The translations under genes and the position numbers were made by a program. From Amoebophrya sp. A120 (Eukaryota > Protista > Dinoflagellata): a stretch of 64,000 nt of DNA. Positions 106 through 58,300 of this stretch are shown one piece after another (the first letter of the stretch is position 1; each line of letters opens with the position of its first letter). Location: NCBI GenBank assembly GCA_905178155.1, contig CAJINV010000013.1:2786158-2850157 (forward strand), given 5' to 3'. The notes below the pieces were generated by a model. It worked only from the letters and a program-made list of their open reading frames with translations. It was not told the origin of the DNA and did not search any database.

Positions 106-1205
106 CTATCGTACGTCATGCTCTTCAAGTTCAAAATACATGACTTTATTATACTTTTTGTTGTTCTGTCGTTCGATGATGGCGGTCATGAAGTAACCGA
201 TGGACCTTAGCGAGAACAGGTTCGCTTCCAGGGAGATGTAACTGAGACTCGGGCACGTGGTGATGATCTGGCAGATATCAAATGCAAAAATGTCTGGGTC
301 TGGAAAAATGCAAGATTTGTCATGCTTAACAGACTGCGCAGCTAAATGCAAGATTTGTCATGCATATTTCTCATGACCCATGATGCCTGTAATGCATGAC
401 CTAGCATCGCAAACATTCAAAGGGCTTCCTGATGCACGTTCCGCATGAGAAATGCCCTGTCAGTGCAGCACAAACGGCGCCCCTCTTGCTGGTCATGCAA
501 TACAAAACTTTTTAGAGTCCAAAAACAGCATGACAAGTTGCAATCTTCCAGACCCAGACATTTTTGCAATTGATAGCAGATGTCCGCACAGGAGTCCATG
601 GTCAGCTGATTTTTCGACAAGTCGAGCGTGTGCAAACTCGGGCAATCGGTGAGGACTTGCGACAAGGTGGAAAACCCAATATCGGAGATGGCGGACCCCC
701 GCAGCAGTGCCTGCTCCAAGTCCCGCTGACGGAGCCACTGATCCACGGTCCGGATGATTTTGGTCGCGGCTTTGGCCGCCTGCTCCGGCTGCCCGTCGTC
801 CTCGTTCCGCTGCAGTTTCGCGGGCTTCCCCTTCTTGTTCTTATTCCCATCTCGGTCGTCTTTCAGCTGCAATCCGAGAATGATGTTCTGCGCCTCGATC
901 TGCTCCCGCTTCGCGAGCTCCGCGTCGACGGACTTCTGCAGCGTGACGATTTTCGCCTTCAGCTGCGAAATCTCATCGTACTGGTGCTGCCCGGTGGACT
1001 GCTGGGCCGAGAGCTTTTCCGAAAGCTCGGTCAGCTCCTTTTTCAGAGCCTCGTTCTGCTCCTCAACCGGGGCCATCCGAGCCATGGTGTGCGAGTTTTT
1101 TTCGATGTACTCGGGCCAAACAAAATTAGTTTTTTCAACCCTCACGCAAAAAACGATAAAAAAAAACGTGTGGGTGAAGAAACACACAACTGTCACGCTT
1201 TTCAA
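106..1205 (-). CDS. Coiled-coil plus leucine-rich-repeat (RNI-like) protein, spliced; both ends uncertain
   Basis: LRR units CPSLHTLDLSKNQL and CPSLSYISLEANLF join in frame (ADIC|QIITT) when element 276-575 plus one TSD is removed. Confidence 0.65.
276..575. mobile_element. Introner family A (300 bp, includes a 38-bp internal insertion)
   Basis: TIR TATCAAATGCAAAAATGTCTGGGTCTGGAA / TTCCAGACCCAGACATTTTTGCAATTGATA; TSD GCAGA at 271-275 and 576-580. Confidence 0.95.
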
Positions 1206-2593
1206 AAAAGCGACGACAGAGTGGCCTGCGAGGAAGTAGGGATTGCTCGAAAGATTGAGATTTCGTATATACTTAACAGGAGTCCTGTAAAAATTTAACC
1301 GTGGATTAGCAATGTTGTTCTTGACACGGACACGATACTAGAACTACACGGATGTTTTTTACTTCACACTTCTTTGTCTTTCCCAAGATGTCCAAGGCAT
1401 GAGGAACGCGAGTCTAAGTCTAGCTTTAGCATTTTTACGACGTAAACCTAGTGTCCTGGTTCTAATTCTCTTGCACGACGGTGTTCTTCCAGGACGAAGT
1501 TTCGACATGGTAGATGGTGGACTGTACGACGAGATAGTGGAACTTCTGAAGTACGAGGATCTTCTGCAGCTCCGTCCAGAGGTGGCACAAGAACTGTACG
1601 ACAATCACACGCACGACCCGCACGGTGCAATACAGAACGATGGAGGGAAAAGAAACGACAGGCCCGTACTATGTTGTAAATAACTGACGATGTTTTCACG
1701 ACTGCCTGGTTTGTTCCCTTGATGTTCTAGTAAACGAGATTACTCCGTGCCGGAAGAACAGAATATGAGCACGACGAGGCACAATTTCGAAGATGATCCG
1801 AACCACGCCTGTAGCTCCTTGCATTCTTCTTTTCGGCCAAGAGCAAGTGCCCCTCGAGGTGGAGCCTCAAAGCCGCGACTAATGTACCTACACGCTCGTA
1901 CTTGTTTGTGCGCAGCTATTTTCATTATGGTATAGGTCCGAAAAGTTGCAGGACGAGAGCAACTCACTTCTAAAGTGCGGTCCTTTTCACTATACAGTCC
2001 TGCTCGCCATACTTACTTCTTCCTTTATCCCGATCTTTGTAGCTCTCCGGCGCGGTCACCACGCCCTCCACGCGCTCCGGAATGTAGGACAAGGGTGTTT
2101 CTGTCGGATCGATCTTATACCTGCGATTTTTCGACAATATGAACATCTTCGAATTCTCTTTGTACAACGAATCACGACACGGTCGCGCATAAAGAAGGCC
2201 GATGAAGATGATGCAGATCAAAAACAGTATAAAGCAAAATCATCAACTTTAGGATGTGTGGGGAGAAAAGACAGTGCTTCACGCCTCACAGCTTTGTTTC
2301 CCCCAGACTCTTCCCCGAGTATAAAGCAAAATGATTCAATTTCAGGCATAGTGAATTTCAATGATACAGCAAGTCGCTCCAGTCGTATTCCCCCTTGTAG
2401 CCTTTTTCGGAAAGTTCGGTTCGCTTTACGCCACGGTTCAGCTCGACAAAGTCCTCTGGCTGCATTTCCTGCCCGAAGTAGTAGGTGCCTTTAGTAGATG
2501 GTATTGATAATCAGATACGGTCGTAGGTAGTATGCATTTTTTTTGCATATGCTCTTTCACAGAAAACAGAGTAAAAGCTGCACGCATCACAAG

Positions 2594-4217
2594 CTAAGAC
2601 CACAAATGTTGCAATGTAAAAGAAGCATCATCATCTACCCCCCTGCTGCTTTTACTATCTATACCTGTATTCCCTTTGTCCGTGTTGTATTCGTTTGTTT
2701 TCTTCGCATACTCGAAGTTCTTTTCCCTTTCTGCCATCCACTCTTCTTTCCCCGCCGACATCAGCCCGTAGGTCGAAACCAACTTGTCCTTATATCGTTT
2801 CGCCTGCGTCTTGTTTGCGTAGACCGGCAAAATCACCTGCTTGCCCTTCTTCTTCCGCTCGACCCGCTCCTCCCACTGCTTCGCGTACTCTAACTTCTGC
2901 CGGTCCCGCCGCTCGAACTCGGTTTCCGCCCCGATCGCGCCCATCGGGTAGCCGTCGATGTCAAACGGCGCATCCGGCCTTCTGCCGTAGTTCGTGTGCG
3001 GCTTCACGGTTAACTTCCCGTTCTTCGCTTCGTGCGTCCGCACTTTTGACGCGACCATGACGAAGGGCCGGTTGCTGTCTTTCGTCAAAATTCGGGAACC
3101 CTGCGGCACGGACATGGCTTGGTATGTGGACAGCTGGGGGTCGAGCAGCTTCTCGATCTTCTCCAGCGCCGTGGGCTCCTTGTTCGGGTCAACCACACGT
3201 TTCGGTATCGGCGGCTGGATGGAGTCGTTTCGTTTGCCCGCTTGAAAACAGTCCCCGAAAGACTTCTTCTTCACTTCATCTGCTATCAGAACATCGGACT
3301 TGGTCTTGATGTCGAGCTGTTCTTGCTGCGTTTCTGCTCTAGTACCTGTTTTCGCTCCAGCAGTTGAGGAAGAAGTTGTTTTTGCCAATTCCTTTATCCT
3401 GTTTTGCTCGGAAACCGGAAGTTTGAAAATCATCCGCGGGTCGTTTTCCTTAATCCTCGACTTCTCATCCCCGCCATACACAATCCCCCCGCTCGCGAAT
3501 TTCGGCGCGTAGTCGAGTTTTACGGGCGGCTTCTTCCGGTTTTCGTCCACTTTCGCCTGGTATTCAATCTGCGTTTTCAACCGGTTTTTCAAGTCTCTTT
3601 TCTGCTTCTTCTCCTTTTTCTTCTCGTATTTCACTTGATCCGAACCGACAGAAGAGGGGTATGCAATCGCAAATATCGATCTGGGTCTTCTGGAGAAAGA
3701 ATGACACCTTAAGATCATGCTCGGCTAGCAGCTGTGTAGATCTAGAACTAGATTCTGTCACATGCATAAGGCGCAATAAACTCCAGCAGGGGTGGCTTTT
3801 TTGTTATATGCCCAATCGCAATTTCTCATGCGCCGAAGCAGGCCGCAACGAACCCACGCATTCGCATAGCAGCGAGAAAATTTATCATGCGTTGCTGTCT
3901 GTCTACTCAGGTCTCCTGCTTGCCACTCCCATTGTAGCATCACAAGTTCTTTCCAGAACAAAACCAGACCGATTTGCATGTGATAAGGGGGGCGCCGTGT
4001 CGATGTTGGGGACGTGCTTCCACGGCACCTCGTAAGGTTTGTCCGCGGCGTTTTTCGTCTTGCCGCTCAGCGTGAACTTCCGTCCCGTCTCGAGCGCCTT
4101 CAGCCGGGCAGATTCGAGGATGGTGTTCTGGTACACAGAATGGGCGAGTTGGCTGTATTCGTCGGTATCCTCCTGGTTCGCCCAACAGGGCAACCGGTTC
4201 GGCAAGGGGCGGTACAT
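2594..4217 (-). CDS. Uncharacterised basic protein, two exons
   Basis: ORFs 3903-4217 and 2594-3718 join as DTAPP|SSVGSDQ on removal of 3660-3985 plus one TSD. Confidence 0.7.
3660..3985. mobile_element. Degenerate A-like introner (326 bp)
   Basis: Starts TATGCAATCGCAAATATCGATCTGGGTC, ends CCAGACCGATTTGCATGTGATA; perfect TSD AGGGG; frame restored. Confidence 0.8.
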
Positions 4218-4851: not shown

Positions 4852-6613
4852 TTACAGTTCCGACTTCTTCTTTTTTTTCGTGCTCTTCGCCTTCCCAGTG
4901 GTAGCACCACTCTCTCCGCCCGCAAACGCAGTGAGCAAGTGCGTGTCAAAAAACTTCTCCATTCCCTTGTCCTCAGCCTCCTTCGAGGTAAATCGTTTCT
5001 CGGCCACCTCGGAAATTCAATTCGGATACATGTCTTGAACGAAATGTTATGGAAGTAGAAGAACGACGCCTAACAAAATGTGGACCCAAATATTGCTTTT
5101 CTGAATGACCGCAAGATAGTTAGAGCACTTCCCATTTTTTTATACCACTTCCCACTTTGGCGCAACGTCTTTTTCACCAACCTGGTCTTCCAAGAATTGG
5201 ACCACGAAAATCCTGCCAGTCTCGTACTTCTTGTCTACTCCAACTGCCACGCTATCCGAGGTGGACCCGGTTGTACTAGCTTTACTCGTCTCTACTCCCG
5301 ATTCATCGTCCAAACTGAACTCGCTGACCAGGTCCAGAGCGGCGGCCAACTGGCCCACGTCCGCCTGTTTCGCCTTCAGCTTGACCTTTTGTGCAAAAAA
5401 GAGTCGGGAGATATCCACGGAGCTGGTCATGGAAAACATGGCTTGCAGCTTTTTCTTCTTCAGATTCTTCTCCTTTGCAAGCTTCTCCTTCGCGTTCCAA
5501 ACCGCTTGCCGATACGAAAGGATCAGCTGATCGTCGTCTTTTTTCCGCTCCGGAAAAAGACCAATCACCTGTGGTTTTGATATGAAAATCGTGTTCCTGT
5601 AGTTGTCATGACAACAAACTACAAAACAACGGCCTCAAAAGAATTTCGCACAGGACGAGATATCTTGTTAGATAGACTCAAGTATCAAAAACCGTACCCT
5701 GATCTTCCCGGCCATCGCGGTTGTGCCGCTTTTCTTCATCCCGAAAAACTTCGTTTCCAGCTGTTCCTTCGACTCTAATACCTTCGCGAAGTGGATGTTG
5801 TTCGCCCCGTAGTACTTCGAGAGCAAAAACTTGTGCCCTTCCGGCGCGCCCTGGTACAGGGACAGCGCCTTTTTGAAGTCTTCCGTGTCGATGACTACCG
5901 GGTCGCCAAAGTTCTGAAACAGGATGTTGGTGGGCACCTGGTTGGGTTCCAGCCACTTCTCCGAAAACTCCTTTTCCATGTCAATGTCGACCATGCCGAA
6001 CGCGATATTCGTGTACTGCTATGGATTGCAAAAATGTCTGGGTCTGGAAGAATGCAACTTGTGATGCTATTTTTCGAATCTAAAAAAAATCTGTATTGCA
6101 TGAGCAGCAAGAGGCGTCCAGTTTTTGCTCCGTGGAGAGGGCATTTGTCATGCGGGATAGGCATCAAGATACCCGCAAAAAATCTGTCATGCTAGGAGAT
6201 GCATTACAGGCATCATAGCCCATGCGAAATATGCATGACAAACCTGGAAATCTTCCAGACCCAGACATATTTGCAATCCATAACCGCCACTGCCTCGCGA
6301 ATTCCGTGTACTGCTGGTAAATCTTCGCGTTCATCAAATTTGGGTGCGCCCCGGAGTAGAAGAGCAAGTACGCGCGCTCGTGTTTGTTCAGAAACTCCTC
6401 CGGCTCGTCGCAACAGGTACACCCTTTCACCTTCACGCTCAACTGCGTCACTTGGCTGTGGTCGTTTTCGCAGGGCAGGGCGGAGGTCAGCAGGGTGTTA
6501 AACGCAGAGAGAAAGAACATCACTGTGAGAAGTGCGACGGGAGCTCTTGAGGTCAGAAGACGAAAAGAAGTGGGAGAGCGGGGCACAAGCCCTCGCTCAA
6601 AAACGACTGACAT
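4852..6613 (-). CDS. Probable ER thioredoxin-fold (PDI-like) protein, multi-exon
   Basis: Hydrophobic N-terminus; thioredoxin-like segment YLLFYS...IAFGMVDIDMEKEFSEKW..VPT; C-terminal KSEL; one introner plus apparently canonical introns. Confidence 0.55.
6020..6282. mobile_element. Introner family A (263 bp), opposite orientation to 276-575
   Basis: TIR TATGGATTGCAAAAATGTCTGGGTCTGGAAG; TSD ACTGC/ACCGC; joins FARQW(R/Q)|YTNIAFG. Confidence 0.93.
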
Positions 6614-7547: not shown

Positions 7548-10500
7548 TCAGTCCTCTTTCGCCTCCAGAATTTCGTCGAGTTCCTTCGTTTTCAGTTCCT
7601 TTTTCTCCACTAGCGTTTTGATCTCCTCCTCTGCCGCTTTCCCCATCTCCTCCACGGCTGTCGCGACCGCCTCGGGGGAAGCGTCTGCAGCGACGTTTAA
7701 CTTCTTCAACTCCTTCGCCCGGTTCTCCAGGTACTTGGTCACATTCTGTTTCAGCTTTTTCAAAGTTCCCTTCGCCAGAGGGGTCTCTTCCTTCGTGTCG
7801 ACATTCACACTTGCATATCGAAAGGAAAAATCCCCCCTCCCCATATCGAAGCGGAAATTTCTGTTGCTGGATTTGTGTACACAAATCAGCGTTGTATTGC
7901 AGGAAGGCATTGCGACCAGATCCCCAGGCTAGGTAGGGGCGTATCGGTCTAGTTGGTCAGCATGGCAAATGCCTCGCCTTTAGGCCCAACAGCATGACAA
8001 ATCGCTTCCATAATGGGGGCGAAGCTTCTGCCCTTGCCTCCTTGCAAGACAGATGTCATTTGTGACCTCAAATCAGCAACGCAAATTTTCGGAAACATGC
8101 CTTTTTGATATGGGGAGGGGGAGTTTTTCCTTTCAATATTGCAACCGGCAACCCTTCTTCGTCCCGCTCCTTCGTAAACGTCATGTCCTCCCTATCCTGA
8201 GTAAAAACGTCCCCACACCAGAGTTGTCATGCGACTTTGCCATGACAGGAACATTTGTGATGCGCAACCCCACGACAGGCATTTTCAATCGTGTTTGGGA
8301 AATTGTAATGCTGTAAACAGGATCAGCAGATCGATTTGTGATGCGGCGTTCCTTGCTAACTTGCACTACCTTACGGACTGAAACTTGTCATGCGTGACTC
8401 ACAAAACTCCTAGGTTTGTGTTGCAAAATCCCCATCCTGACTCTGGTGTGGGTACGTTTTTACTCAGGATACTCCCGGGCCAGCAGCCACGCTTCCTTCG
8501 TCGCATATTGCAAGGCGTCTTTGCTCCTTTCCAGCTCCTTCTTCTTCGATCCGATCTTCGTTTCCAGCGACTTCAACTCCACCAGCAACTTTTTCTCCTG
8601 CTCCTGCGCCCGCTCCCGCATCAGCGCATTTGGATCCCGCAAAGTCCACTTCCCTTGCGATCCGGTGGCGCCGGCCGCCATACTCTTTCCGTCCTGCAAT
8701 TCCACACCGAGCTTCACCAAGGTTTTGTCGCGCAGGTCGTCGCAGAGGTCCAGCGTTTGCTTCTGTTTCGCACTCATCGCCTGCTGCTTCACCTCGTCGC
8801 GGAAGCTAACCAGCGCGTCCACGAAGGGCGCGACCAGTTCCTCCTTACTGACCGCACCGGCTCCACTACTCGCGTCGTTCTCGCCCAGCTCGTCGGACCC
8901 GGCGAAGACGCCGAACAGCTTCATGTATTTTGTGACCAACGCGGCGGCCTTGCGCAGGATCAAAACCCGCGGAGACCTTTGCTGCGTCTCCATCGAACTC
9001 ATGTACACGTTGCACTTTTTGATCATTTCACTCAAAATCTGCAGCACCTTCGGGTAGTTGAAGTTGTCCAAAAGCGCCTCGTGGATCTCGGCGTGGGAAG
9101 TCTGGATCATCTTGGACAATTGCTTTTCCTCGTCGCTCCAAACCTGCTCGGTGGCCGACGGGCAGCCGGCGTTCCGGATCTTTTGCTTCACGGTGCCCAT
9201 GAACGACCGGATGCGGTTGTCAAACTCCTGGGCCGTCAGCATCTGGTCGCTGCTGTAGTTCATTTTCCGGTCCCACCGCTGCTGCAGAAACGCGATGCGG
9301 AGCTGCGTCGCGGTGGTTTTCTCCAGAATTTCCTTGATAGAAAAAAAGTTCTTCAGACTCTTCGACATCTTCAGCCCCTCGATGTTCAGCGTGCCCGCGT
9401 GCGTCCAGTAGTTGCACCACTGCTGCGTGCCGTGGTAGCACTCGGACTGCGCCATCTCGTTGGCGTGGTGGGGGAACTTCAAATCCTGCCCCCCGCCGTG
9501 TATGTCCAGCCGGTCCCCCATCAAATCGGACGCCATGACGGAGCACTCGATGTGCCACCCGGGCCGCCCGAGGCCCCAGGGAGACTCCCACCGCGGCTCG
9601 CCGTCCTTGGATTTTTTCCACAGAGCGAAGTCTCGCGGATCCTTCTTCTCGACCGCCAACTTCACGCCCAGCGCGCCCTCGCCCTCCTGCATCGCTTCGT
9701 CGTCGATTTTGTCCTTGTTGCCCTTGGGCCCGAGTTTCGGGTAGTCGTGGTCGTTCTTCTCGAACTGTTTCGTGTCAAAGTAGACGGAGCCGTTGCTCTC
9801 GTACGCGCCCCCGGAAGCGACCATTGTCTTGATGAACTCCACAATCTGCAAAGTATAGTTGGAGGAGACACGAGGTTGATCAGATTTTTGTTTTTCTGAA
9901 ACCATTGAAATAAACCTGTCCTCCTCGTCGTGCCAGCACATCTACTCCTACTTCACAGCGAATAAACTACACGAGAAGCCATTGATTGTGAGGATTCAGA
10001 CAGAACTACTAGTACCTCCCAAGAAAAATCATGCTATCAATCTAAACGTCTGCAATCATCTCGTCTCCGTCTCCCAGCACGACCTTCCAAACAAAAGTAC
10101 TAAGCCATACCTGATCCACATACTCGGTGACGCGCGTGATTGCGTCCGGCGGCCGCACCCCCAGGGCGGCCATGTCGTCCCAGAAGCTGGCTTCGAATTT
10201 CCTCGCGTGGCGCTGAAAGACCATGTTGTCGGTGACAGCGCTTCCCACGGTCTCGTCGAGCCAGTCCTTCAGCTCGTCGCCGAGCACCGACGCCGCGGCC
10301 TCGAAGTCCTTTTTCTCCAACGCCACTCGCGTTTTCTCCGCGGTTTCGAGGAAAGTTTTCTGCTTCAGCTTGAACTTTTCCAACTTTTCCTGCTGTTCCT
10401 CCTCGCTCGGCGGCTTCCACCCTTTCGCGACCGCGGTCTCGATCTGCTGCTGGATTTCCGCGACTAGCTTTTCCTTCTTCGTCCGAAAGTAGTCGTCATT

Positions 10501-11896
10501 CTTCTCCGATAAAATCTTTTCCACGTCCTGGACAAAAGTCGCGCCGTTCGCCGCTAAGAATTTCCCCTCTCTCTGCTTCTTCAAATACTCCGCCAGCAGC
10601 TCGTTCTTCCGGGCGCGGAGGATAATCTTGTCGTCGATGTATCCTGAGTAAAAACGTCCCACACCAGAGTTGTAATGCAGATTTGCAAAGACAGGAAGAC
10701 TTGTCATGCGCATCCCCATGAAAGGCATTTCTAATCGTGTATTGGAATTTGTGATGCTGTGAACAGGATGAGCAGATGAATCTGTGATGCGACTGCAGTT
10801 GCTAACCTGCACTACACTGCGGAGTGCAACTTGTCATGCGTGACTCCCAAAACTCCTAGGTTTGTGTTGCAAAATCCCCATCCTGACTCTGGTGTGGGGA
10901 CGTTTTTACTCAGGATACGATGTCGGTAATGTTCAACTGGTACAGGACTTCGTACCCGAAGTAATCCTCCATCACTCGGCGCATGATGTCAAAGGTCAAG
11001 TACGCCCTCGCGTGCCCCAAGTGTGCGTGGTCGTAGACCGTGGGACCGCACACGTACCAGTTGACTCTCCGTCCCTCGTGCGGCAGGAACGGCTCGACCT
11101 CGTCTGTTAGAGAGTTTGTCATGCGCAGTCCGGAATAGCCCAGGGGGAAGGTTTCCGGGTTCGCGCCGACAATCTTCTCGTAGACCGCCGGCACGTGCCA
11201 CTTGAAATTGTCATTTTTTTCCACCACGAGCGGGGCGCCGCAGCATCCTCCACGGGCCACCATTCTGTTCGAGGGCGACGTTGTTTGTGGGACCAAAACC
11301 GCGTTGGAATCCACGTCGACAATGTTATTTGTCCGGGCAGAAGGGGAAAACTTCGTGCTTGTTCCGGCGGTGGTAGCTGGTGCGGAAGGAGAATTGGTGT
11401 TACTCTCCTGCAGCAAGTGCTTCGCAACAGCCTGATCCGCGGTGGTGGTTTTGTCTTGCGCCTGACCCATCTGGTCTAAGGTCTCCTTGTTTGCCATAGG
11501 AAAATGGATGAAGTTGTAGTTGGAAGAGCTGCGGTAATTGTTCTCGCTGGTATTGATATCTTCTGAGGTAGTTGATGAGGATGTTTTCCCTGTATTTGTT
11601 GCGGCTGCTACAGAAGCTGCATAGGTCGAGGAAATAGTGTTCCGTACACTCCTAAGGTAGTAGTTCAAGGTCGCTGTTGTAGTGACTTCCCGTCGTTGAT
11701 GTGAGTGAGAAGATGTTGAAAATGTGAATGTCAACGCTGACGAAGAAAATCTGCCGCTGGCGAGAACGAACTTGGAGTGACTTTTCGCACTCGCAGTAGC
11801 AGTTGTGGAAAATTTTCTTCTTGTAGCGGGAGAAATCGTTGCGGTTCTAATTTTCTTCAGGGTAAACGTGGCTGCAGCGCTTTTGGCGCTCCACAT
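7548..11896 (-). CDS. CARS: Cysteinyl-tRNA synthetase (class I), 5 exons; alternative start at 11497
   Basis: YVCGPTVYDHAHLGHAR (HIGH), NITDI|DDKII, WESPWGLGRPGWHIECS, DIHGGGQDLKFPHH, KMSKS; canonical GT-AG intron 9846-10110; three introners. Confidence 0.97.
7816..8138. mobile_element. Introner family C (323 bp)
   Basis: TIR TATCGAAAGGAAAAATCCCCCCTCCCCATATC; TSD TTGCA. Confidence 0.93.
8193..8471. mobile_element. Introner family B (279 bp)
   Basis: TIR TATCCTGAGTAAAAACGTCCCCACACCAGAG; TSD CTCCC. Confidence 0.95.
10640..10917. mobile_element. Introner family B (278 bp)
   Basis: Family B TIRs; TSD CGATG; splits the CysRS NITDIDDKII motif. Confidence 0.96.
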
Positions 11897-12673
11897 CAAA
11901 AAAAATTTCGACGATCTTCGGCGAGTTTGCCGGATAAACGTTGCCAAGCGAGACGTGATATGTTGCACAATGAAGGATCCAGTAGTTGTACTTCTAGATG
12001 TTGATGTAGGTATTTTATTACAACAATGTGCAAAAAAATGATTCCAATAATTTTCTAGGCAGCTAACCACTATTTTCGTAGCTACAGGAAAACCAAAAAG
12101 TGAGTTTGTCAATTCAGTCGTGCCTTTTGCACCGCCAGTGGCATTCGATCATCTAGTCGTTTTACCACAGTGCTTGAGTTTCATCACATTTTTTCTCAAT
12201 GCGAGGATCAGTGCTTTGAAGATCTTGAGGCGGTTGATCTATCAACAGTATCACAAAAAATATTTCCGCCCCGTGAGCAAGTGGGACGGAACTGGAACAC
12301 TGTGCACTACACGAGCCGTAGGCCAAAACATGACACTCCTGCTCCGGTGTCTAAATTGATGATCATACTCACTTGTGAAACTCCATCGAGTATTTTTCGA
12401 CGTGTCAAAAATGGTACAGAGAGGTCGTCTTTCCACAAAAGGAAACTCAACTCTTCCAAGAAGGCTTTCAAATTCAAAAGTGAAACCAAAAATCATACAA
12501 GAGATGGAAGCCACTGTCCTGGTTCTCACAACTTCTGCAGTACCTTCCATATGCTTATGATTACTCCAATCCTACAAGACCCGGGGGACACACAGTACTT
12601 TGACCGCAATAAAGTTGTAGTCTTTAGACTGAGGTCAGGTCGTGCCACCACGACTCCTTGCAAGACCCCCTGC

Positions 12674-15265
12674 TCACACGTCCGTATTTTTGTAGTTTGC
12701 CGGGGTTTTCGGCCTTTTCATCGCCACCGTGGGGTTGACCGTCCGACTGGCGTTCACAATTCTGGTGGCGCCGGAGTTATCAACTGCAAATATGTCTTGG
12801 TCTGGGAGATTGCGAGATTTGTAATGCTAGTCTGGCATGACTCTGAACTCTGTATTGCGTGGCCGCGGGCAGCTCCTCTTACCTGTCAACATGCAACAGC
12901 GCAGTTTCCCATGCGGAGTACGCAACTCAGAACCACGTCAAGACTTGTCATGCTCATGCTGGGCAGCGCATTATAATGTTTTCACTATTCCCTTCTTTGC
13001 ATCACAAGTCTCCAGACCCAGACCACATTTTTACATTTGATAGGAGTGGGCGGAGAACAAAGTTCGGCCCAGTGTCGTGTTCAACTTGATTTCCGAAAAC
13101 GCCTGCCGTTGCAAAAAAGACCCCTGCGGCCCCAAGCCGGTTAAGCCCGTCGCCCGTGGCGGCGTTTGCAGTTTGTCCAGGTACAGATTCCCGCCGAAGG
13201 GCGACATCATGGGCGGCGGGAGGAGCGTGTTCTGCAGGCTATTCGAGGTTTCGTAGTCCATAGACGCAATGCCCGCGTTGGTGGAGGCAAAGCCGTCAAC
13301 CTGTGTTGGATCAGTGTAAGCAATTCGCATTAAAGATTTCTTTACCTCATGCGGTGAGCGATAGGAAGAAACACGCCATGCGACTATTGACGCACGACCA
13401 GTAGGTCGCGATGTACGATAAACTATATACGTTTTTCACAAAAAGCTGCACTCAGACTTACCTTCAACAACCTCTGAAACATCTCCTTGGACAGGACGCC
13501 TCCGCCCTTCATGCCCGCACGAAAGTCCGCAAACACCTTCTGCCGCCGCTTCCACACGTCGCTGGGCTCCCCCATGCAGAGGGGCCAATTCACCGAGACG
13601 TAGGCGGAGATGTGAATCTCGTCGACGCGGCGCCGGTGGCCGAGCTGAATGAAGTCGCCGCCGGGTTTGATCTTGGGCACCGGCTTTTTCTCCTCCTCCA
13701 CATCCTCGTCATCCGAAACTTTCGTCGGATCGTCCTCCGATTGCTCGGGGTACAGGTCCTGAGAATGTTTTGTGGTTTTTGATTTTCAGAGTGGATGCTA
13801 CATGGTTCCTATTTCTATTGCGTTTTGAATAAAACTTATCCACCTATTTGTATGCCATTTCTGAGTCAAACAGCAAAATCTTCCAACTACATGCAAATCA
13901 ACAATTGAACCGAGGACCACAGAACCAAGCGTTCCACTTTGCTACTGTAAGTACCCCTCTCCCTCCCGCCGCCCGGGAGTGCACCAAGTCCCTGTGCGAG
14001 GGCGGGATCCGCAGCATATTTGCGGAAAGCGGCACTTCATCGCTCAACAAAACCGTCGACAGCTTCTCTTTCCGCAAATGCATCGGCGCAATCGTCAGTT
14101 CCTCGAATGCGTCCTCGAATCAAAAGGAAAAATCCCCCCTCCCCATAATGATGAGGTGCGTTTTCGAAAATTTGTGTTGCTGATTTGTGACAACAAATCG
14201 GGTCTGTTTTGCAAGTCGGCAACTCCACCGGCTCCGCCGCATTATGCAGGCGGTTTGTCATGCTGTTGGGCCTACAGCGCGGACGTTTTTCATGCTAAGC
14301 GCCTACACAAAAACCTCTCTCTTCAGGCTCGATAGGGGCCTGCAGTCCTCTCCAGCATCACAAATCTGATTTGTGTACGCAAATACAGCATCACAAATTT
14401 CGTTTTCGATATGGGGTGCGGGGATTTTTCCTTGTGATACCTCGAAATACTGGTTCAGGTTCCGGCCCTGCATCAAGTGCTGCGCTCCGTGCCGCGAGCT
14501 TCTGCCGCCGGGCGTGCTCGGCGACTTCAGCCCACGGGAGGACGCTGGGGAAGCCTTTATTTGCTGGTAGTTGTTGTGCTGACTCTGACTCACGCCCCCG
14601 GGCGAGCTCGGCGTCGGTTTAGGTGAGCTGATCCGGTTCGTGATGCCCCCCGGCGCAGGAACTACGGGGGCTCCGCCGCCTCGGGGGCTGGGCTTGGGGG
14701 AATACCGCGACGCCACCCGCTCCGGACTCGGTTGGGTTCGCGTCCTGCCGGGGGACCTGGGGCTGCGGTTCGGCGACAAAGCTCGGGACTGGGACCGGGA
14801 TCGGTTTCTTCTCCGTGCTGAGCTTTGCGCGGAACTGGGCCGAGATGGGTGTCCCGAGGTCAAGCCGAGCAGGCTGGCTTTGTGGGGCGGATCTTGCTGC
14901 AGCATGTCGCAGAGGTCGTACAGGGTCATCGCGTCGTAGAGCTCTTTCCCGGACTGATACCGCGACTCGTACACCTTTTCCTTCCGGATCTGCAGCGGCG
15001 AGGAAGCGGCATTGTCCAGGTTCTCGTTCTCGAGGAGAAAGTCGATGTTGTCCTCGATCAGCTCAAAGTGCGAGAGAAATAACCGCACTTTCTTCTGCTC
15101 GAAGTCGATCTTGTATTTTTTCTCATCCCGGGCCCGGGCCTCCTTGAACACCGTTTCTCGGATCTCCGCAACGGAGGTCTCACCGGGAAGCTCCAGCTCC
15201 AAATTCCCGCCCGCCAGCGAAAACCGGTGCACAATCACCTTTTTCACTTTGGACTCCCCCGTCAT
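12674..15265 (-). CDS. Uncharacterised protein with possible N-terminal ubiquitin-like domain and S/P/R-rich region, multi-exon
   Basis: ORF 14303-15265 continues QYFE|DAFEELT across 14118-14439 and SAHS|GATRIV across 12778-13042; UBL call is by eye only. Confidence 0.55.
12778..13042. mobile_element. Introner family A, diverged (265 bp)
   Basis: TATCAACTGCAAATATGTCTTGGTCTGG...CCAGACCACATTTTTACATTTGATA; TSD GGAGT. Confidence 0.9.
14118..14439. mobile_element. Introner family C (322 bp), opposite orientation to 7816-8138
   Basis: AATCAAAAGGAAAAATCCCCCCTCCCCATA...GATTTTTCCTTGTGATA; TSD CCTCG. Confidence 0.92.
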
Positions 15266-24814: not shown

Positions 24815-24899
24815 CGACTTCGCCCTGTCCTTGTCGCTCGACTTCGCCTTGTCCTTGTCGCTCGACTTCGCCTTGTCCTTGTCGTTCGACTTCGCCTTG
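24815..24899. repeat. 24-bp tandem repeat, about 3.5 units, probably coding (KAKSSDKD on the minus strand)
   Basis: CGACTTCGCCTTGTCCTTGTCGCT repeated head to tail. Confidence 0.9.
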
Positions 24900-43321: not shown

Positions 43322-45022
43322 TCAAATACATCGGCACAGTGTCAGTTGTTCACCACATTTCCTATTAGTGCAGCACGGCTCATAAAAAATACTTATGCTG
43401 CAACTCCTGTTCTTGATCTTCTCTCCGGATCGAACATCTTTCACTTCTGCCGGCATAATTTGGCGACCGGCCAGTTTCGTTGTACGAGGCAGGATATCAA
43501 ATGCAAAAGTGTCTGGGTCTGGAAGAGTGCAAGATTTGTCATGCATATTTCTCATGACCCATGATGCCTGTAATGCCTGCCCTAGCATCGCAGACTTTTA
43601 AAGGGCTTCCTGATGCACCTTCCGCATGAGAAATGCCCTGTCCGTGTAGCAAAAACTGCACCCCTCTTGCTGGTCATGCAATGCAAATTTTTTTAGAGTC
43701 CAAAAACAGCACGACAAGTTGCAATCTTCCAGACCCAGACATTTTTGCAATCCATACAGGATGATACCCAGCTCCCGCGGCCAGTTCCCGCTCCCCCGAT
43801 GCGGGACTGCTCGCGTAGGGACGTCCGAAAAGGTGCTCGTAGATGTGAAACGACTTCTCGGACAGCTTGCCCGCGAAAAACATCAGGACTACGGTTGCAG
43901 CATCCCAAGAAAAAAATCTGTGCAATGTTGCCGACATCTCCTTCGTAATGCCGACATCGCATTAACAGCGACGAGAAGATACAACTCTAAACAGGACACA
44001 TCGTTGCAAATTCTCTCTCACGTTTTGACTACAAATGGTACGAAAAGTATGCCAACCTATCGGAGCAAGGCGAGCGGCAGTAGTACAAATTTCTGTCACA
44101 ATCAAAAAAAACGAGCTGCCGTCCTCGCGCAGATTTTTTCCTGGATACGCCGGGACGGAGCCTTTCCAGGGAAACAAAAGCCACACCAGGAGAATAGCTG
44201 CGAACATGAAAGCCACTATCCCGGTGCGTGAAACAATAACCCAACCACCATCAACAATATACTCTGAAAATCCCTACCCTATGGAGAAATCAAGTATCGC
44301 TTTTGAAGCAAACTTTCGATGCAAAAAGTAAATGCAAATGGACCTGCTTTTGCTGTCCCCCCTGACGGCGCGGCTTCCTCAAGTGGCAACGTGATAATTG
44401 TAAACCCAGGTGCTGTGAAAGGAGGACCTGCACAACTTTCACGATCTCTACTCGCACTAAAAAAACGATGCTGTCCTCGCGGAGAGGTTTTATTGTTCAC
44501 ACGACACAAGGATAGAAATGATGCCGAGAAAGGTGAACTTGATGGCAATTTCGTGCGCGTTGGAGAGTACCATCACGGCGTAGTCCATAGCTGCCGCGTT
44601 GTCCCCCCGCAGGGCCTTCCCAGGACCCCACATCGAGCACAGGGTGGAGATCATCAGCACCGTGAAAAACGACCCAAAACATGTGGTCGCGACGAACAGA
44701 ACAATATCGGGTGTAAAAATCAAGCATTCATAACCGCTCAGATTCCCGCACTTTCCGCCAGTATACCCAAGCGATTTTGCGAGAATGCAATACTAGTGCA
44801 AAAGTGAAGATTGTAAGTATTAACTATGTTGGATTCTAGAAGGAAATTGGATTTCATTCGAGTAAGCGGAACGGGTGAAGGACCGCCTCCTCGCTCTGCC
44901 TCCGACTTAAGCAGCACTCCATATAAAAAATTATCCATGTTGATTACTAGCTGACCATGAATTTTGTACAGTAAGTAGGTGTAGGCATTTCTTTCTGACC
45001 GCATAGTAAGTAAGCTCTGCAA
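43322..45022 (-). CDS. Uncharacterised multi-pass membrane protein; exon structure and ends unresolved
   Basis: Hydrophobic exons VLFVATTCFGSFFTVLMISTLCSMWGPGKALRG and AFMFAAILLVWLLFPW. Confidence 0.45.
43495..43756. mobile_element. Introner family A (262 bp)
   Basis: Family A TIRs; TSD CAGGA; closely similar to 276-575 and 47242-47503; host frame not resolved. Confidence 0.95.
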
Positions 45023-47184: not shown

Positions 47185-48940
47185 TCAGTACTTGATTCTT
47201 TTGCGAGAGATAGGCTGCACGAATTGCAACGCCTGGCCCTGTATCAAGTGCAAAAATGTCTGGGTCTGGAAGATTGCCGGGTTTGTCATGCATATTTCTC
47301 ATGATCCATGATGCCTGTAATGCATGACCTAGCATCACAGACTTTTAGAGGGCTTCCTGATGCACCTTCCGCATGAGAAATGCCCTGTCCGTGTAGCACA
47401 AACCGGACCCCTCTTGCTGGTCATGCAATACAAATTTTTTTAGAGTCCAAAAACAGCATGACAAGTTGCATTCTTCCAGACCCAGACATTTTTACAGTTG
47501 ATACCCTGCACATTCGGATCTTCGCTCAAGCTGACGGCCTCGGTGATCTTAGCCAGAATCCACTGCCACGTAAAAAGCCGGATTTTTAGCTCCTCCTCAT
47601 TTTGGAAACCGTTCGGGCTCAGCAGCTCCAGCTGCTGCACTTTGCGGATGGAAACGAGGGCGGCCTGGGAAGAGTTGTGTCTATATTATAATAATTTCGC
47701 AGATTCAACAAAGATCAACAAGGCAGTGCAGTTCAATACCGCTTGGAAATTCTCCTGCGTCTGGTACACTCGCTTTTTCCGTAATTCCTGTGCATCTTGT
47801 TCACAATTGTAGCGGCACATCGGCAAATATACGGGATCTACTTCAACTTCCTGTACAATAAATACAGCTTTTGAGTACCTTATGGATGACGTCTCATGAT
47901 CTTCACATTGAAGCATAAATATTTCTCCACCGATAATACCTGTCCGGGCGGCAGGGGTGCGGGCAGCGCTGTCCTCAGCTTCTGCATCTCGTTTTGCAGC
48001 CCGTCGATTTCTGCTTGCAGCACGTCTTTCTCCGCTGCACTAGTCTGCCGGAAGTCGGTCACTTTTGCTGCACAGTTTTTCTCCCCGAGCTTTTTTTCCT
48101 CTGCCACCGCGGTGTCGACCTGTTGTTTCGCTGTCATTTCCATCTTCGCAACTGTGCTTTGCACGGCCTCTGCTTCGATCCGCTTGGCGTCGGGACACAC
48201 GACGGGGCTTGGCTGCGCTTCCTTGTTTGCAAGGGTCTTGTTAAAGAGGGTCCGTGGTAAAATTCCACCCAGAAATAACGCGCTGTCGCCCAGAATCTTG
48301 ACTTCAAGAATCTCTGTTTGTACCAAGGCGACAGTGCCGACCAGGAGGATCAGCGTGGAGAAGCAGGTGGACACGAAAAGCGATTTCGCGACAGATTTCG
48401 CGGAAGAACTTGAGGCAGCTGCTTTCGAATTGCTCGGATGGTGGTTGTTCTCATCCCCCGTGCGTGGCGTGCTGGCCGCGGTAGACGGGGGCTGGGTGTC
48501 CGCGGCGCTCTCGCCACCGGCCGCCGGATTGTTCTTCGTGGGTCTCTCTCAACTGCAAAAATGTCTGGGTCTGGAAAGAACTTGTGAATGCGGCTTGGAT
48601 AATCTAAACGTCTCAAGAACTGCTGGCCAGGCATGACAAGTTTTTAAGTTCCTCTTACCAGGTGTTGCCTCTTCTTCTTCTTCTTCGAAAAGGAAAACAA
48701 AAACTGCGTCACTGCATGACAGAAATAAACTGGGGGTGTGTGGGTCACGTGCATGAGAGACTTGAGTCATCTCATCGTCATGCTGGCCGAGCATGACAAG
48801 AAGTCCGAGCTTCTTCATCCACATCCAGACCCAGTTTTCACATTTTCCATGCGTAGCGACCGGTTTCTCTGCCGTGACTTGGTGGCCGTCGGGGGAGACT
48901 TGGCGGCGCTGCGCGCCTTCTGCTCCGCTTTCGAAGGCAT
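47185..48940 (-). CDS. Uncharacterised single-pass membrane protein with coiled coil; 3' end uncertain
   Basis: MPSKAEQK... exon, TM segment CFSTLILLVGTVALV, coiled coil; frame continues across two introners. Confidence 0.5.
47242..47503. mobile_element. Introner family A (262 bp)
   Basis: Family A TIRs; TSD CCCTG. Confidence 0.95.
48547..48855. mobile_element. Degenerate family A introner (309 bp)
   Basis: TCTCAACTGCAAAAATGTCTGGGTCTGGAA...TCCAGACCCAG...GCGTA; TSD eroded (GTCTC/GCGAC) but frame kept. Confidence 0.7.
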
Positions 48941-49925: not shown

Positions 49926-52900
49926 TCACTGTGCCCCCGCCTTCGCGTTTTTAACCTGTTCCGTGAGTGCCTCCAATTTTGGTTTTTCCACCTCTTCGGT
50001 GAATTTTTCCGGGTTCAGAAACCGTTCCTGGTCCCACAAATACCGCTCGCGCATCAGCTCCTGCAGTCGCACATTCCGCTTGTCCGACTCTTTATCCCAT
50101 GCGTTCTCGAACACGTCCAACTCTTTGGTCTTGGCGTCCCCCTTCTTGACTAATCGCTTCCCCTGTTGCCCGCTCCAAATCTTCTGCAGTTCCAGCAACC
50201 TCTCCCGGCCGGACTGCTGCATGCCGGTCTCGCGCAATTTCTGTTCCACTTCCTCCTTAGTGTAGTGCCCCTTCTTCAGCAAAGCTGCCCGCTGCTGTTC
50301 CACGCTCGGGTTGGCCGCCAACATGCGGCCGATCTCCTATCGTAAAGAAAAATCCCCACTCCCCATATTGAAACCGCATCCGTCTGAAAATTTGTGATGC
50401 ACATTCGTGACCTCAAAGCTTGTCTGTCTTGCAAGCAGGCAAGTCCAGAGAGCCCCCTGCATTTTGCAGGCGGTTTGTGATGCTGTTGGGCTTAGAGCAT
50501 ACACGTTTGTCATGCTAGGCGGCTACGTCAAAACCCCTCGGCCGAGGCTTGACATATGCCTGCAGTCCTCTACTGCAAGACAAATCTGATTTGTGTACGG
50601 AAATCCAGCATCAGAAACTTCGTTTCGATATGGGGAGGGCGGATTTTTCCTTCTGATATCTCCTCGACCGTGACGAAAACGTTGTTGGTGCCGTCGAAGT
50701 ATCCAGTGCAAAAAATATGTCTGGATCTGGAAGAGCGCAAGATTTGTCATGCTGTTCCGGCATGACTCTGAGCTCTGTATGGCGTGGCCGCGAACAGCTC
50801 TCTTGCCTGTCATTCAAAAATGCAGTTGCTCATGCGGGATACGTAACACAGAGCCACGAAAAAACCTGTCATGCTTGGCGGTGCATTACAGTCTGCCATT
50901 TGTTCGCTGACTTGCATCACAACTTTCCACACCCCGACATATTTGCAATGCATACGAAGTCGGGGCGGACCGAAAAGTCCATGCCGGAGGACTTTCCGGC
51001 GGTGTTGTGCATCCTTGCGTTGAAGAACCACTCGGCACGGGGGTAGTGCTTGGACACGTAGGTGCCGAACTTGGTGTTGTAGAAGATCGGGGTGGACACC
51101 CGTCCGTTCCCGGTCACCATCTGCTTGCGCGTCATCATCACGCGGTGCCACATGGACTTCAGAATCGCGGTCGATTTCGGCTGGTTCGTGATTTCGTTCC
51201 GGATGATCAGGTTGAACGACGTGTTGGCCTCGAGAAAATCGGACAGAAACAAAAACATGTCGATGTTCTTGTCTCCCTTGATTTTCGCCCACTGCTTCTT
51301 CGCGGACTTCTTCATCTCGTTCGGCCTTTCCTTGATTTCCAAATCCCCGGTGAACAGTTCCAGCCCCTCGTCGTTCGGCGCCGGGATCAAGGTCATGGCG
51401 CAGATGTCCGTGTGCGACCCCGCCCACAGCTTTTGCGTTTGCTCGTCCTCCTGGTCCGACTCGCTGTCGTTCTCCGCGCTGGCCGCCTGCGCGAGAGCCG
51501 CGGACGTCACGGGTGCGGTGGGAAACTGGTCGCGCCGTCCCGGGTACCTGAGCATAGCAGAAGATTGGTTGTTCTTCATCTCGTCTTGATAGTTCATCCT
51601 CATGCATAGTAGTTTTTCGTACTTTTAGTTTTACACAAATACTGCACAAAAGATTTTTGCACGAAGTAGATGATCTTCCGCGTGGTCATCTTTTTGGCGA
51701 TTATTTCATGCACTCGATGCATTTATTTCCGCAGACTCTACTCCTCAAATCCGATAGTACAAGAGGTACATCAATTATTATGTCCGCTATTTATACCACA
51801 AGTTTCGACTGTAGCCCGACTGCTGGTCATTTTCGAAATCGAAGAGCCTGACCTCCGCCAAGTACCGCAGCTGCTCGTCGATGTCTTTCTTCATGGACTT
51901 GGCTAGTTGCGAGAAAATCACCTCCTCGACCTTGTTCGTCGGCTGCAGAAACGAAGAGTTATTTCGGCCATTTTGGGCGACACCACCGCTAGCGGTTGTA
52001 GGAGCCGTAATGTCGATCATGTATTCGACGATGTTTTTTCTCCACTCCGCCTCTGCAAGCTCCTGGGACCCTTGCGTTTCTTCCTCCGCCGAGTCCGGCA
52101 AAAGCTGCTGGACCAATTGCGCGTTACTCCAGTTGGTCTTCATGTCCAGCAGACGGGCCTTCATGGTGTCCAACATGCTGGTGACCTCGAGCTGCAGTGC
52201 CTTCAGCACGTCCTTTGCGAACGTGTGCGAGGCTCGCAAGTAGATCGGCATCAGTTCGTGCAAGTGAAACGTGGGCTCTCCGGTGGGGACTTGTTTGTTG
52301 AAAAGCTTCGCCTGTTCCTTGCTGTAGTTCGAAAGCTTTTCGAGGAGCGACTTTTGCAACAAAGCCGGGACGGAGTCTTCTGCGAAAGTTTTCTGCTTCA
52401 ACGTGGTCAAGCCGCTGCGTTTTGATTTGAGTTGTTCACATGAAGGCAGTAGTAGATGCATGCAAAACGATACAGTTTTGGTTTTTGTCGTGAACAAGAC
52501 CACGCATGTTGCCGAGGGAGGAACGTTTGTGATGTTTGAATTTCAAACTAAACTAGTATCAACAAAACTCCGTATCAAGGATACCTCTGCACGCGGACTT
52601 CCATCAATTCCCTCAGTTCGGCAATGCGCTTTTTCTGCATCTCCCCCTCGTTCTCATCCGGAAAAGGAAACCAGCGCACATCGATGCTCCACTTGTTATC
52701 GGCAACCTTCTGGCCCTCGGCCTGCTCCCCCGGAGGGACGATCATGGCCCAAATGCTGCTCGAAGGGTCTTCGCCGAAGGCCTCCGCCATATTCGGCTGC
52801 TCTAACAGCATGCGATAGTTCAGCATGATGCCGATTTCCTGCTGGATCCAGCTGATGCCCTCCAGGAAAGTCAGGCTAAACGATTCTATCGCCTCGGAAG

Positions 52901-55399: not shown

Positions 55400-58300
55400 T
55401 CACGCCGCCGCGACGTTCAAGCTTTCCATGGCTTCCACTAGTCTTGGTGGAATCGCCAAGGACGGGTATTTTTCCCGCAGCGTTTTCAAAATCTCCATGG
55501 ATTGCTGCAACAACGGGCGGCCGGAAGCGAAAAAGATTTCCATCACCTCCAGTTTCTCCTTGAACTCGCGGTTTTCGTACTTTTCCACCGCTTTTTTGAA
55601 CTCCTTTATCGAAGGAAAAAACTGTGTTAGTGTAGGTCTCTTGGGAAAACAGCATGACAAGTTTGTCTGCCATGATAGGAAAAACTTGTCATGCGCAGAT
55701 AGGGTGGGAAAACACGTAGGAAGCGAGCCTATCATGCATGTGAAGCATGACAAGCGTAACTGTTTTGCATTTTCTGCATCACGGACTTACACTTACAGAG
55801 TTTTTTTCTTGCATATCCTTGTTTTCCGTCACGATTTTTCGATACCGTTCCTCGGTCTGCGTCACGTCCTGCATCAGTTCCTGGGCAACGTCCAAAGCCT
55901 CCTTGTCCTCCTGCCGCAGCATGTGCAGCTCCTCAATCTGCTCCTGTTGCAGCTCCAGTTTCGGCTCGTACTTGTTGATCAACTGCTCCAGTTCGGCGTT
56001 TTTCAAATTTGCAACCTCGATCTGGTCGTGCAGCTGTTTTATCTTTTTCCCGAAGTCCATAGTATTGGAGGAGTTGTTGTTCGCCTGATCCTCGATCTGC
56101 TGCTTCAAGCGCTGGTTCTCCGCGAGGAGGGCACCTTTTTTCATTTGTGATACGTGTCTATATCGTTATCGAGCGACAGAATTTTTGCATGTTGACACAA
56201 GTTTCTACTTGCAGCTTTAACAGGTCATGCATAACAAAAAAAATCTAAACCTTGTTTCTTTCCTTCCTTATGGTGCCTTTCCAGCTCCTGTATCTGACGG
56301 TGGTTGTCTTTCTTCAACTTATTGATCACCGTTTCCATGCCCTCCACGATGGCCTCCAAGTTCTTCTCTCGCTTCGACTGTGGCTGCGCTTTGTTCGACG
56401 AGGAACTTGCACTACTATCTCCCGCTGTTTTACCCGAGGAATTCCTCCCCTTCGGCGAGACCGGCTGGTTGCTCTGGTTGATCAGTTCCAGTTCCCGGAT
56501 CCGGTTTTGCATGCGGTTGAATGCTATGAATTGCAAATATGTCTGGGTCTGGAAGGTCATGCTGTTTTTGCATGACGCAGATGGTCTGGCATGGAAGCTC
56601 TGGCATCACAGGTTTCGAGAAGCGTTCCCAATGCCGAATCCGCATGGCAACTCCCTGATTTTGGTGACAGAAAGTGGGCATCTTTTGCTGCCTATGCATG
56701 AGAGGTTTTTCTGTGTTCTGAAATGCGCATCACAAGTTTGTATTCTACTTCCAGACCCAGACATTTTTGCACTTGATAAATTTCGTTTCCCACTGCGTCT
56801 TGTCGAACAGGTATTCCATGGTTTTCATCTCCTTCTTTTTCACGTCGGATTCTAGTACCCGGATCTGCTTGGCGTAGTCCGCCGTTAAATCTTCCAGCTT
56901 TCGCACTTTCAAGTTGATTGTCATGTATTCCTCCTCCCGCTGCGCCCAGTCGTCCCCTAACCGGATCGACTTCACCCGCTTCAACTCGAACTTCACCTGC
57001 TCGCACTATCAAAAGGAAAAATCCCCCCTCCCCATACCAGAACAGAATTTCTGATGCTGCATTTGCGTACACAAATCGGGCTAGTCTTGCAGTAGAGTAC
57101 TGCAGACATATGCTAAGCCTGAGCATAGAGGTTTTGACATACCCGCTCAGCATGACAAAAGTCTACGCTGTAGGACCAACAGCATTACAACCGGCTGGCA
57201 TAATGAGGCCGACTCTCTGGAGTTGCCTTCTTGCAAGACAGCCAGGATTTGTGATCACAAATCTGCATCACTAATTTTCAGCCGGCTGCGTTTTTAATAT
57301 GAGGAGGGGGGATTTTTCCTCACAATACGCACTGCTGGTTCACCTTGTCCAGCTCCTCCTGCAATTGCTTCGAGTTCAGCTTCTCCTGCTCGAGCAGCTC
57401 CTTCGCGTCAATGGTTAATTGCTTTTCCATCGTCTCAATTTTCGACTCCAACTCGAAAATTTGACTGCGATACTGGTCCGTGGTCTTCAACTTTTCAATC
57501 TCCGCGTTGCTGGACTTGTTCTGGTGGTGCTCGAGCTCCGCTTGCAAGTTCTTCACCTGGTCTTCCAACTTCTTGGAGTTCTCGCGGATCTCGTTCGCCT
57601 TGCTATTCTCCTTGTTGATCAGTTGCACTTTGTGAAATTCCTTCTCCAAGTAATCCTTGTGCTCCTCGGCCTGCTTCAACTGTTTCCCGAGGTTCTCGAC
57701 CTGCTTCTTCAATTTGCGCGCGAGCTGCTGGTCCGCGGTTAACGTGGCTCCTCCTGCTTTAATACTACTCGAGCCCTTGTTCGCAGCTTCCTGCTCCAGA
57801 GGTGGGAGGTTAATATTGTTCTTTGCCGATTTCATATTCGCGCTTGACGTTATCCCTCCTGCGATCTTCCGCAGGGGGAAATCGCGGAGAATCACCTTGG
57901 ACACCTCGTCCGCTAAGCACATCCCGTTTTTATCTAAAATCACCAGCAAGTGGAGCTTCCGCACGGTTTCCAGCTTCAAGTTCAGTTGCCGGGCGAGATG
58001 TCCGCAGAGACTGTGGAACAAAACTCTCCCTGTTCGGAGGGGGTCGAGTTCCTTGAGTAGTTTTATTAAAGAGAGTTTCTGCTGGTTCAACGCATTGTGG
58101 ATTACCGACACCGCCGGCATCGCCTCCGTCCACTTACTCGCGTTGTTATCGTTATTACCGTCGTCCTTCGCCGCTTGAATGGACTTTATCAGGAAGTCCA
58201 ATTTCAAGAGGTTCTGCTGGTTCATGTTCGGCTGCTCGCTAGACGAGGCTCCTGCTGCGTAGTCTTGCTTCAAGACCAAAAACTCAAAAATCCTGGAAAT

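Follow-up and report, generated by a model that had tools for sequence, protein, structure and literature searches.

Removal of inverted-repeat introners in either orientation in a 64-kb window of Amoebophrya sp. A120

Inverted-repeat elements in the window

The 64,000-nt stretch of Amoebophrya sp. A120 analysed here (contig CAJINV010000013.1, positions 2,786,158 to 2,850,157; hereafter the window) contains 29 inverted-repeat elements, 28 of them clear and 209-343 nt long and one decayed (48547; elements are named by their first position), which fill about 13% of its length. They are built with a TAT start, a run of A at positions 11-13, a reverse-complement end (TAT…ATA), terminal inverted repeats (TIRs) of about 25-30 nt and a flanking 5-bp target-site duplication (TSD). 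The TAT-type ends were first detected by a scan that required no motif. A wider sample was taken from metagenome contigs matching the family A TIR (150 stretches, at least 147 loci, with 283 elements in those listed), which resemble the window in element sequence only. Together, window and related contigs hold multi-copy families, namely A, B, C, a 150-nt family and a 209-nt family, and the 5-bp TSD was perfect in 130 of 153 copies from the window and the strictly filtered part of this sample. The initial annotation had named nine copies (276, 6020, 7816, 14118, 39937, 43495, 47242, 50338 and 57007), and all nine begin at these positions, each with TIRs and a 5-bp TSD. Copies of families A and C sit in genes in both orientations and are removed either way.

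The elements are listed below, without strand, by window position. A+ and A-, and likewise C+ and C-, are opposite orientations. Joints and contig pieces come from runs X1-X4, which were guessed to be RNA and consist of contigs only, from one sample.

276..575: family A, A+; TSD GCAGA; within an LRR-like minus-strand gene; joint 270>576, skip 305 = 300+5, in 3 of 4 putative RNA runs
3660..3985: divergent A-like introner with bulged TIRs, overlooked in the initial annotation; TSD AGGGG; joint 3654>3986, skip 331 = 326+5, in 4 of 4 runs; fold z -0.09
6020..6282: family A, A-; mismatched TSD ACTGC/ACCGC, of which the upstream (higher-coordinate) copy stays in the transcript; joint 6014>6283, skip 268, seen in 4 of 4 runs, with ambiguity limited to 2 letters
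7548..12148, minus strand: cysteinyl-tRNA synthetase (CysRS) host gene with three introners and GT-AG intron 9846-10110
7816..8138: family C, C+ (inverse of 14118); TSD TTGCA; in the CysRS gene; joint 7810>8139, skip 328, in 4 of 4 runs
8193..8471: family B; TSD CTCCC; in the CysRS gene; joint 8187>8472, skip 284
10640..10917: family B; TSD CGATG; interrupts the CysRS catalytic domain (Pfam PF01406 positions 57/58); joint 10634>10918, skip 283
12778..13042: family A, A-; TSD GGAGT; joint 12772>13043, skip 270
14118..14439: family C, C-; TSD CCTCG; joint 14112>14440, skip 327; the sole copy among the 10 RNA-joined ones in which a GT-AG register is possible
18977..19252: family A, A+; TSD CAGCA; putative RNA contig piece ends at 18971; frame restored
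20231..20486: family A, A- being the probable but less secure orientation; TSD ATCTC; host gene an alpha/beta hydrolase
20561..20839: family B; TSD CTCCC; in the same alpha/beta hydrolase gene as 20231
22176..22501: family C, grouping with 7816 (C+), ambiguous in the interior orientation test; TSD GCTTT
22567..22832: family A, A+; TSD ACCCC
27150..27492: degenerate B-like element with uncertain ends; the sole copy in which element+5 is not the best frame
28731..28992: family A, A+; TSD CGACC
39580..39889: family C, weakly C- (no cluster placement); TSD GCTCC; in a thioredoxin-domain gene; joint 39574>39890, skip 315, in both putative RNA runs, no such joint being listed for the DNA-like run X5
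39937..40198: family A, A-; TSD CACGG; joint 39931>40199, skip 267; its mRNA 5' end reads TAC, not TAT
43495..43756: family A, A+; TSD CAGGA; removal from the coding model alone
47242..47503: family A, A+; TSD CCCTG; removal from the coding model alone
48547..48855: old family A, A+, with decayed ends; TSD 2/5 alike (GTCTC/GCGAC); right end inferred; putative RNA contig pieces (X1, X3) end at 48541, the record running on; frame fits
50338..50658: family C, C-; TSD TCTCC; removal by length accounting
50700..50954: family A, A-; TSD CGAAG; removal by length accounting
55607..55815: fourth family, 209 nt; TSD TCCTT; removal by length accounting
56525..56778: family A, A+; mismatched TSD AATGC/AATTT; removal by length accounting
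57007..57327: family C, C+ (inverse of 50338); TSD CGCAC; contig piece begins at 57328; removal by length accounting
60879..61184: C-like TIR, interior without family placement; TSD GCAGC
61248..61526: family B; TSD GGATT/AGATT
61640..61921: family B; TSD CAGCT
62428..62734: family C, grouping with 7816 (C+); TSD GGTGA/GGCGA

With TIRs, a constant TSD, short length and no coding capacity, the elements are non-autonomous TIR DNA transposons (MITEs, or miniature inverted-repeat transposable elements). They are the A120 introners already published by Farhat 2021 (PMC7789003), going by its text and supplementary text, which describe an inverted-repeat motif of TAT, 7 variable nt and AAA, direct repeats of 3-5 nt (with a 5-bp example in the Fig. 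S19 legend) and non-canonical borders, and propose a hairpin that joins the exon ends. In the present set, the host is A120, the repeat reads TAT-N7 followed by at least three A, the direct repeat falls within 3-5 nt, the families are multi-copy, and 9 of the 10 joined copies have non-GT-AG borders.

No cognate autonomous element or transposase was found in the window or among the 147 related loci listed, and the five longest genuine copies in the related contigs (457-972 nt) held no open reading frame (ORF) above 118 aa. A 4740-nt candidate element was dropped as a chance pairing spanning several smaller elements, and the family A TIR gave 0 matches to viral contigs. A constant 5-bp duplication suits an integrase-like transposase, as in the Copia integrases. 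An A120 TIR family with integrase-like (Copia/Gypsy-like) ORFs is reported in the accessible text of PMC12130899.

In the related contigs, three family A copies (L068:5017-5988, L044:3862-4492 and L066:2310-2813) were swollen to 500-970 nt by internal insertions; the L068 insert is bounded by a roughly 19-nt direct repeat, and the enlarged copies carry no long ORF. A C copy closely followed by an A copy (22176-22832 in the window) recurred at L037:1627-2262 and L034:1762-2399; the TSDs differ in L037, the one inspected, and with elements this dense the pairing is probably due to chance. All families had in common a subterminal motif of the GCATSACA/TGTSATGC type, with a frequency per kb of 12 in elements, 1.6 in GT-AG introns and 0.18 in exons. 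It may be a repeat bound by the transposase, and its low-level presence in GT-AG introns is a hint of decayed introners among these.

Exact removal of the elements from transcripts

The contigs of X1-X4 skip GT-AG introns and therefore behave as spliced transcripts; the 12 non-element joints listed for these runs all read CT..AC on the plus strand, i.e. GT-AG on the minus strand. All ten elements with a listed joint (276, 3660, 6020, 7816, 8193, 10640, 12778, 14118, 39580 and 39937) were skipped exactly as the element plus 5 nt. For five further copies (50338, 50700, 55607, 56525 and 57007), removal followed from exact length accounting: a contig span of 2260 nt equals the loss of 50338+5, 50700+5 and the GT-AG intron 51548-51796, and a span of 2691 nt equals the loss of 55607+5, 56525+5, 57007+5 and the GT-AG intron 56135-56250. 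Transcript evidence reaches 7 of the 9 copies named initially, while 43495 and 47242 rest on the coding model only. Family A was removed as A+ (joint at 276, accounting at 56525) and as A- (joints at 6020, 12778 and 39937, accounting at 50700), and family C as C+ (joint at 7816, accounting at 57007) and as C- (joint at 14118, accounting at 50338), so both families are covered both ways. These joints and the coding model bear out the initial claim that either orientation restores the frame, and the removal is the same element plus 5 nt in each.

In the coding model, which was trained on the window and is thus in-sample, removal of the element plus 5 nt was better than removal shifted by ±1 nt in 27 of 28 elements, and a frame of 1998 codons crosses six elements once they are removed. 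The spliced CysRS product showed 100% identity, over 1062/1062 aa, to P0001, which carries the label Amoebophrya sp. A120; A25 came next at 65%. Across the 10640 junction it aligned without gaps to 4 of 4 non-A120 homologues, and the 8193 and 7816 junctions fall in its poorly conserved tail. If retained, 27 of 28 copies, the three in CysRS among them, would disrupt the frame or introduce stops, and therefore removal must occur in vivo.

Template-switch artefacts typically arise at strong hairpins that have 5-bp direct repeats, and the joints were seen in cDNA-derived contigs only, as would be expected if reverse transcriptase had jumped over a hairpin with short direct repeats and no splicing had taken place. 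This explanation is very improbable, given the coding damage that retention would cause in those 27 copies, and given exact joints with just 2 letters of microhomology (6020) or weak folding (3660). Excision from the DNA in an expressing stage, in the manner of ciliate internal eliminated sequences, would likewise be blind to orientation, and orientation neutrality and TA-initial TIRs would suit it. We regard it as barely credible, because the DNA-like run X5 had no element-skipping joint among those listed, its contigs pass from the flanks into the TIRs, and the putative RNA runs contain flank-element junctions of other loci. No separate germline nucleus is known in the Amoebophrya lineage, so that excision from the DNA would be inherited.

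Orientation of copies relative to the host genes

Orientation was scored on element interiors, with 45 nt cut from either end. Copies 6020 and 39937 matched 276, 43495 and 47242 in reverse only (local scores 109-189 reverse and 19-23 forward; shuffled maximum 26), 7816 is inverted relative to 14118 (129 reverse, 40 forward), and 57007 relative to 50338 (236 reverse, 23 forward), all as first described. Global interior identity of these inverted pairs was 0.61-0.82 in reverse and 0.51-0.60 forward. The host genes all run on the minus strand, as had been noted, and the same in-sample model placed every one of the 28 called elements in a minus-strand frame.

In the related contigs, the host strand was assigned to 125 of 283 elements by strict strand and frame filters and to 99 by looser rules, 59 being left out; with the 28 window elements this gives 252 strand-assigned copies, and the orientation splits use the subset assigned to families. 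A single gene strand was found in 30 of 30 related loci with at least two confident copies. Since all related loci were found through the family A TIR, family A is over-sampled. The splits against the host strand were 62:59 for A, 13:15 for B and 12:12 for C, so families A, B and C show no orientation bias. The initial annotation had called the five window B copies, all in one orientation, too few for a bias; in the related contigs 8 copies have that orientation and 15 the opposite one, and the window run of five is therefore not a family bias. The 150-nt family split 9:7. The 209-nt family (55607-55815 in the window plus related loci), the only one hinting at a bias, split 13:3 (p about 0.02 before correction for five families).

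Position of the cut

Two copies with mismatched TSDs were informative, one per orientation. At 6020 (A-) the transcript retains the upstream TSD copy through at least base 3, and at 48547 (A+) contigs in two runs depart from the window sequence at 48541, so that the downstream TSD copy is excluded, one base perhaps excepted. The cut is thus staggered and polar in these copies and retains the upstream TSD copy. The initial annotation had proposed the symmetric ends as the signal; the ends are symmetric, whereas the cut made at them is not. If one register holds throughout, the two copies would place the 5' cut 0-1 nt ahead of TAT and the 3' cut 4-5 nt past ATA.

In the register one base ahead of TAT, the intron begins NTAT and its TAT corresponds to +2 to +4 in the GTAT donors found locally. 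The 14 local GT-AG donors have T at +2 in 14/14, A at +3 in 13/14 and T at +4 in 7/14. In Table S4 of Farhat 2021 (PMC7789003), T stands at +2 in all nine of the commonest A120 non-canonical classes, to which aligner preference may contribute.

Signals at the element ends

The intron is defined by the ends of the element and not by its interior, and no strand-specific signal was found; to this extent the initial annotation stands, while the hairpin, which it had offered as a likely signal, was not singled out by the data. Position by position, 30 in all, the 5' and 3' TIR profiles in mRNA sense showed no difference (n=153; lowest p 0.08). No GT or AG bias of the TSD was reproducible, and TSD and flank bases were near background. 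A G[TC]-AG pair in any register was possible in 6 of 130 perfect-TSD copies, and GT-AG in the one-before-TAT register was possible in 7 of 252 copies; for the most part the elements lack the GT/GC donor and AG acceptor of U2-type introns. Terminal stems were predicted in both senses for 9 of the 10 joined copies (mean pairing at positions 8-25, 0.44-1.0), and TIR positions 4-7 were paired in just 42-76% of copies.

That the elements work both ways round does not discriminate between a hairpin and a sequence signal, because the TIRs give both orientations identical linear ends: either way round, the same single-stranded TAT stands at the 5' end and the same T-run lies 15-19 nt ahead of the likely 3' cut. 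The spliceosome might then read linear motifs alone (the donor-like TAT start, this T-run and the GCATSACA-type subterminal repeats), pairing being irrelevant and TIR symmetry kept just for transposition. In favour of this are the lack of an RNA-pairing signature, the splicing of copy 3660 without excess folding, and T at -15 to -17 in 147-153 of 153 copies. The last count is partly built in, as is the conservation of the ends and TSD, since the scan demanded near-TAT ends, an A-run and a TSD; decayed copies are under-counted for the same reason. We consider the explanation by linear motifs unlikely, because local GT-AG introns have A/C-rich ends and no pyrimidine tract, and because the subterminal-motif content of family B flips with orientation (6.6 vs 0.08 per copy), yet both orientations occur. 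In addition, the left and right TIRs of one copy match each other slightly above shuffled partners at positions 11-25 (p about 0.01, families A and B), an excess that could also come from subfamily structure.

Proposed mechanism of removal

We propose, with the chances about evenly balanced, that a relaxed spliceosome lacking U1 is guided by the paired mirror-image ends and takes no cue from GT, AG or a branch point at a fixed position. The TIRs would pair and draw both ends together; U6-type donor recognition without U1 could act from either end in the one-before-TAT register; the 3' site would be placed by its distance from the stem; and the fixed 5-nt stagger would reverse every insertion whatever its target, and would in this way account for how the elements came to invade essential genes. 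The spliceosome is favoured over the other explanations because NTAT resembles the local donors and because T stands at +2 in the A120 non-canonical classes. U2, U4, U5, U6 and nearly all spliceosomal proteins, U1 excepted, are reported from A120 in the text of Farhat 2021 (PMC7789003).

Several points weigh against this proposal. No shared branch-point motif was found: YTRAY had no common position across orientations, and it is present in only 5 of 12 local GT-AG introns. There was no G preference at +1 (84 seen vs 74 expected, of 252). An AG excess at TSD positions 3-4 (18 of 130, p 0.007) was rejected, as it did not replicate in 99 more copies (7 vs 6.5), and the mirror CT was equally raised (17 vs 11.6), so the excess is not strand-specific. 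TAT is conserved equally at both ends (243 and 242 of 252), which transposase binding explains as well. With 182 G·U and 195 A·C pairs in mRNA sense over 227 copies, there was no G·U excess such as selection for a hairpin in the RNA might have produced, and so no sign of fine selection for RNA pairing, although long stems may leave some latitude. Copy 3660, which is spliced, folds no better than shuffles (z -0.09) and retains a predicted outer stem. The register comes from two copies (a listed joint at 6020 and a contig piece end at 48547), and the contigs, from one sample and only guessed to be RNA, cannot measure efficiency.

Some of these points would suit an endonuclease and a ligase acting outside the spliceosome, or a transposase-derived protein, that would recognise the stem end by its two-fold symmetry and cut the pre-mRNA with a 5-nt stagger. 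The random +1 and 3' dinucleotides, the missing branch motif and the full 5'/3' symmetry agree with it, as does the fact that U1 went undetected in A120 (PMC7789003, in its text). Such a pathway was proposed for the nonconventional introns of euglenids, which exit as full-length circles (text of PMC11282704) and have asymmetric spacers of 3 nt and 5-6 nt (text of PMC12501133). Opposed to it are the fit of TAT to local donor positions +2 to +4, the nearly complete A120 spliceosome (PMC7789003), the tunicate TIR-derived non-canonical introns described as spliceosome substrates in PMC11282704, the lack of a G·U excess and the weak pairing at positions 4-7 beside the cut. We rate the endonuclease and ligase as a rather doubtful candidate. 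Tentatively, the A120 route may read only the two-fold symmetric transposon end, with a fixed 5-nt stagger and possibly outside the spliceosome, and would as such be an RNA-level undo dedicated to the insertions of one transposase, with no dinucleotide, branch motif or strand preference.

Canonical introns and neighbouring genes

Canonical introns of the window, e.g. 41193-41466 and 41743-41962, begin with GTA in 13 of 14 cases; their 3' ends are rich in A and C, finish in CAG and have no pyrimidine tract. About 1 kb past the stop of a long EF-hand/coiled-coil gene (54395-55399) was unbroken in putative RNA contigs, which suggests a long 3' untranslated region. A minus-strand ORF of 1763 codons (32330-37621) had no introner and no Pfam match.

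Comparison with known systems

The elements belong to a known system, correctly observed in the initial annotation; what they add is useful constraints on the A120 splicing mechanism, apparently unstated before. In Amoebophrya 60%+ of the introns lack GT-AG, and the way in which they are removed has been an open problem since 2021; here the signal is constrained to be symmetric, with a free border base and a constant polar 5-nt stagger. If insertion anywhere and in either direction is exactly undone, this explains how elements fill about 13% of the window without breaking genes. Alignment rules that require one orientation, as in the methods of PMC12130899, may split families or miss inverted copies.

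Orientation neutrality, the constant element plus 5 nt, the polar register and the absent G·U bias did not turn up in the searched text and supplementary text of PMC7789003. Orientation neutrality in A120 is likewise unstated in the accessible text of PMC9860276, PMC12130899 (whose datasets may hold it), PMC11453091 and PMC13326754, and literature searches, which did not extend to subscription papers, returned no statement of it.

The nonconventional introns of euglenids resemble the A120 elements in their TIR ends, MITE-like build, non-canonical borders, direct repeats and asymmetric spacers (text of PMC12501133 and PMC11282704). They carry a CDG...CHG signature whose spacers measure 3 nt and 5-6 nt, and the exon begins with a purine (PMC12501133), whereas the A120 elements have TAT...ATA, a 5-bp TSD and no TSD base bias; repeated multi-copy families are not described for euglenids in the text of these two papers. 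The MITE-derived introns of Fritillaria borealis are also TIR/TSD transposons with non-GT-AG borders; in the text of PMC11282704 they favour AG-AC and AG-AT and are reported to be spliceosomal, whereas the A120 elements favour no border dinucleotide.

In Polarella glacialis, introner-like elements (ILEs) of classes 2, 3, 6, 7, 8 and 10 are TIR/TSD DNA transposons that form introns either way, and those of Aureococcus likewise create introns in both orientations (both from the text of bioRxiv 2020.10.14.339549). There, GT/GC/GA and AG sites are recruited from the TSD or the element and one orientation is favoured, whereas the A120 elements need no dinucleotide, only 6 of 130 perfect-TSD copies allowing G[TC]-AG in any register, and A120 families A-C are unbiased. 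All three systems have in common TIR and TSD transposons that become introns in both directions and leave the mRNA restored.

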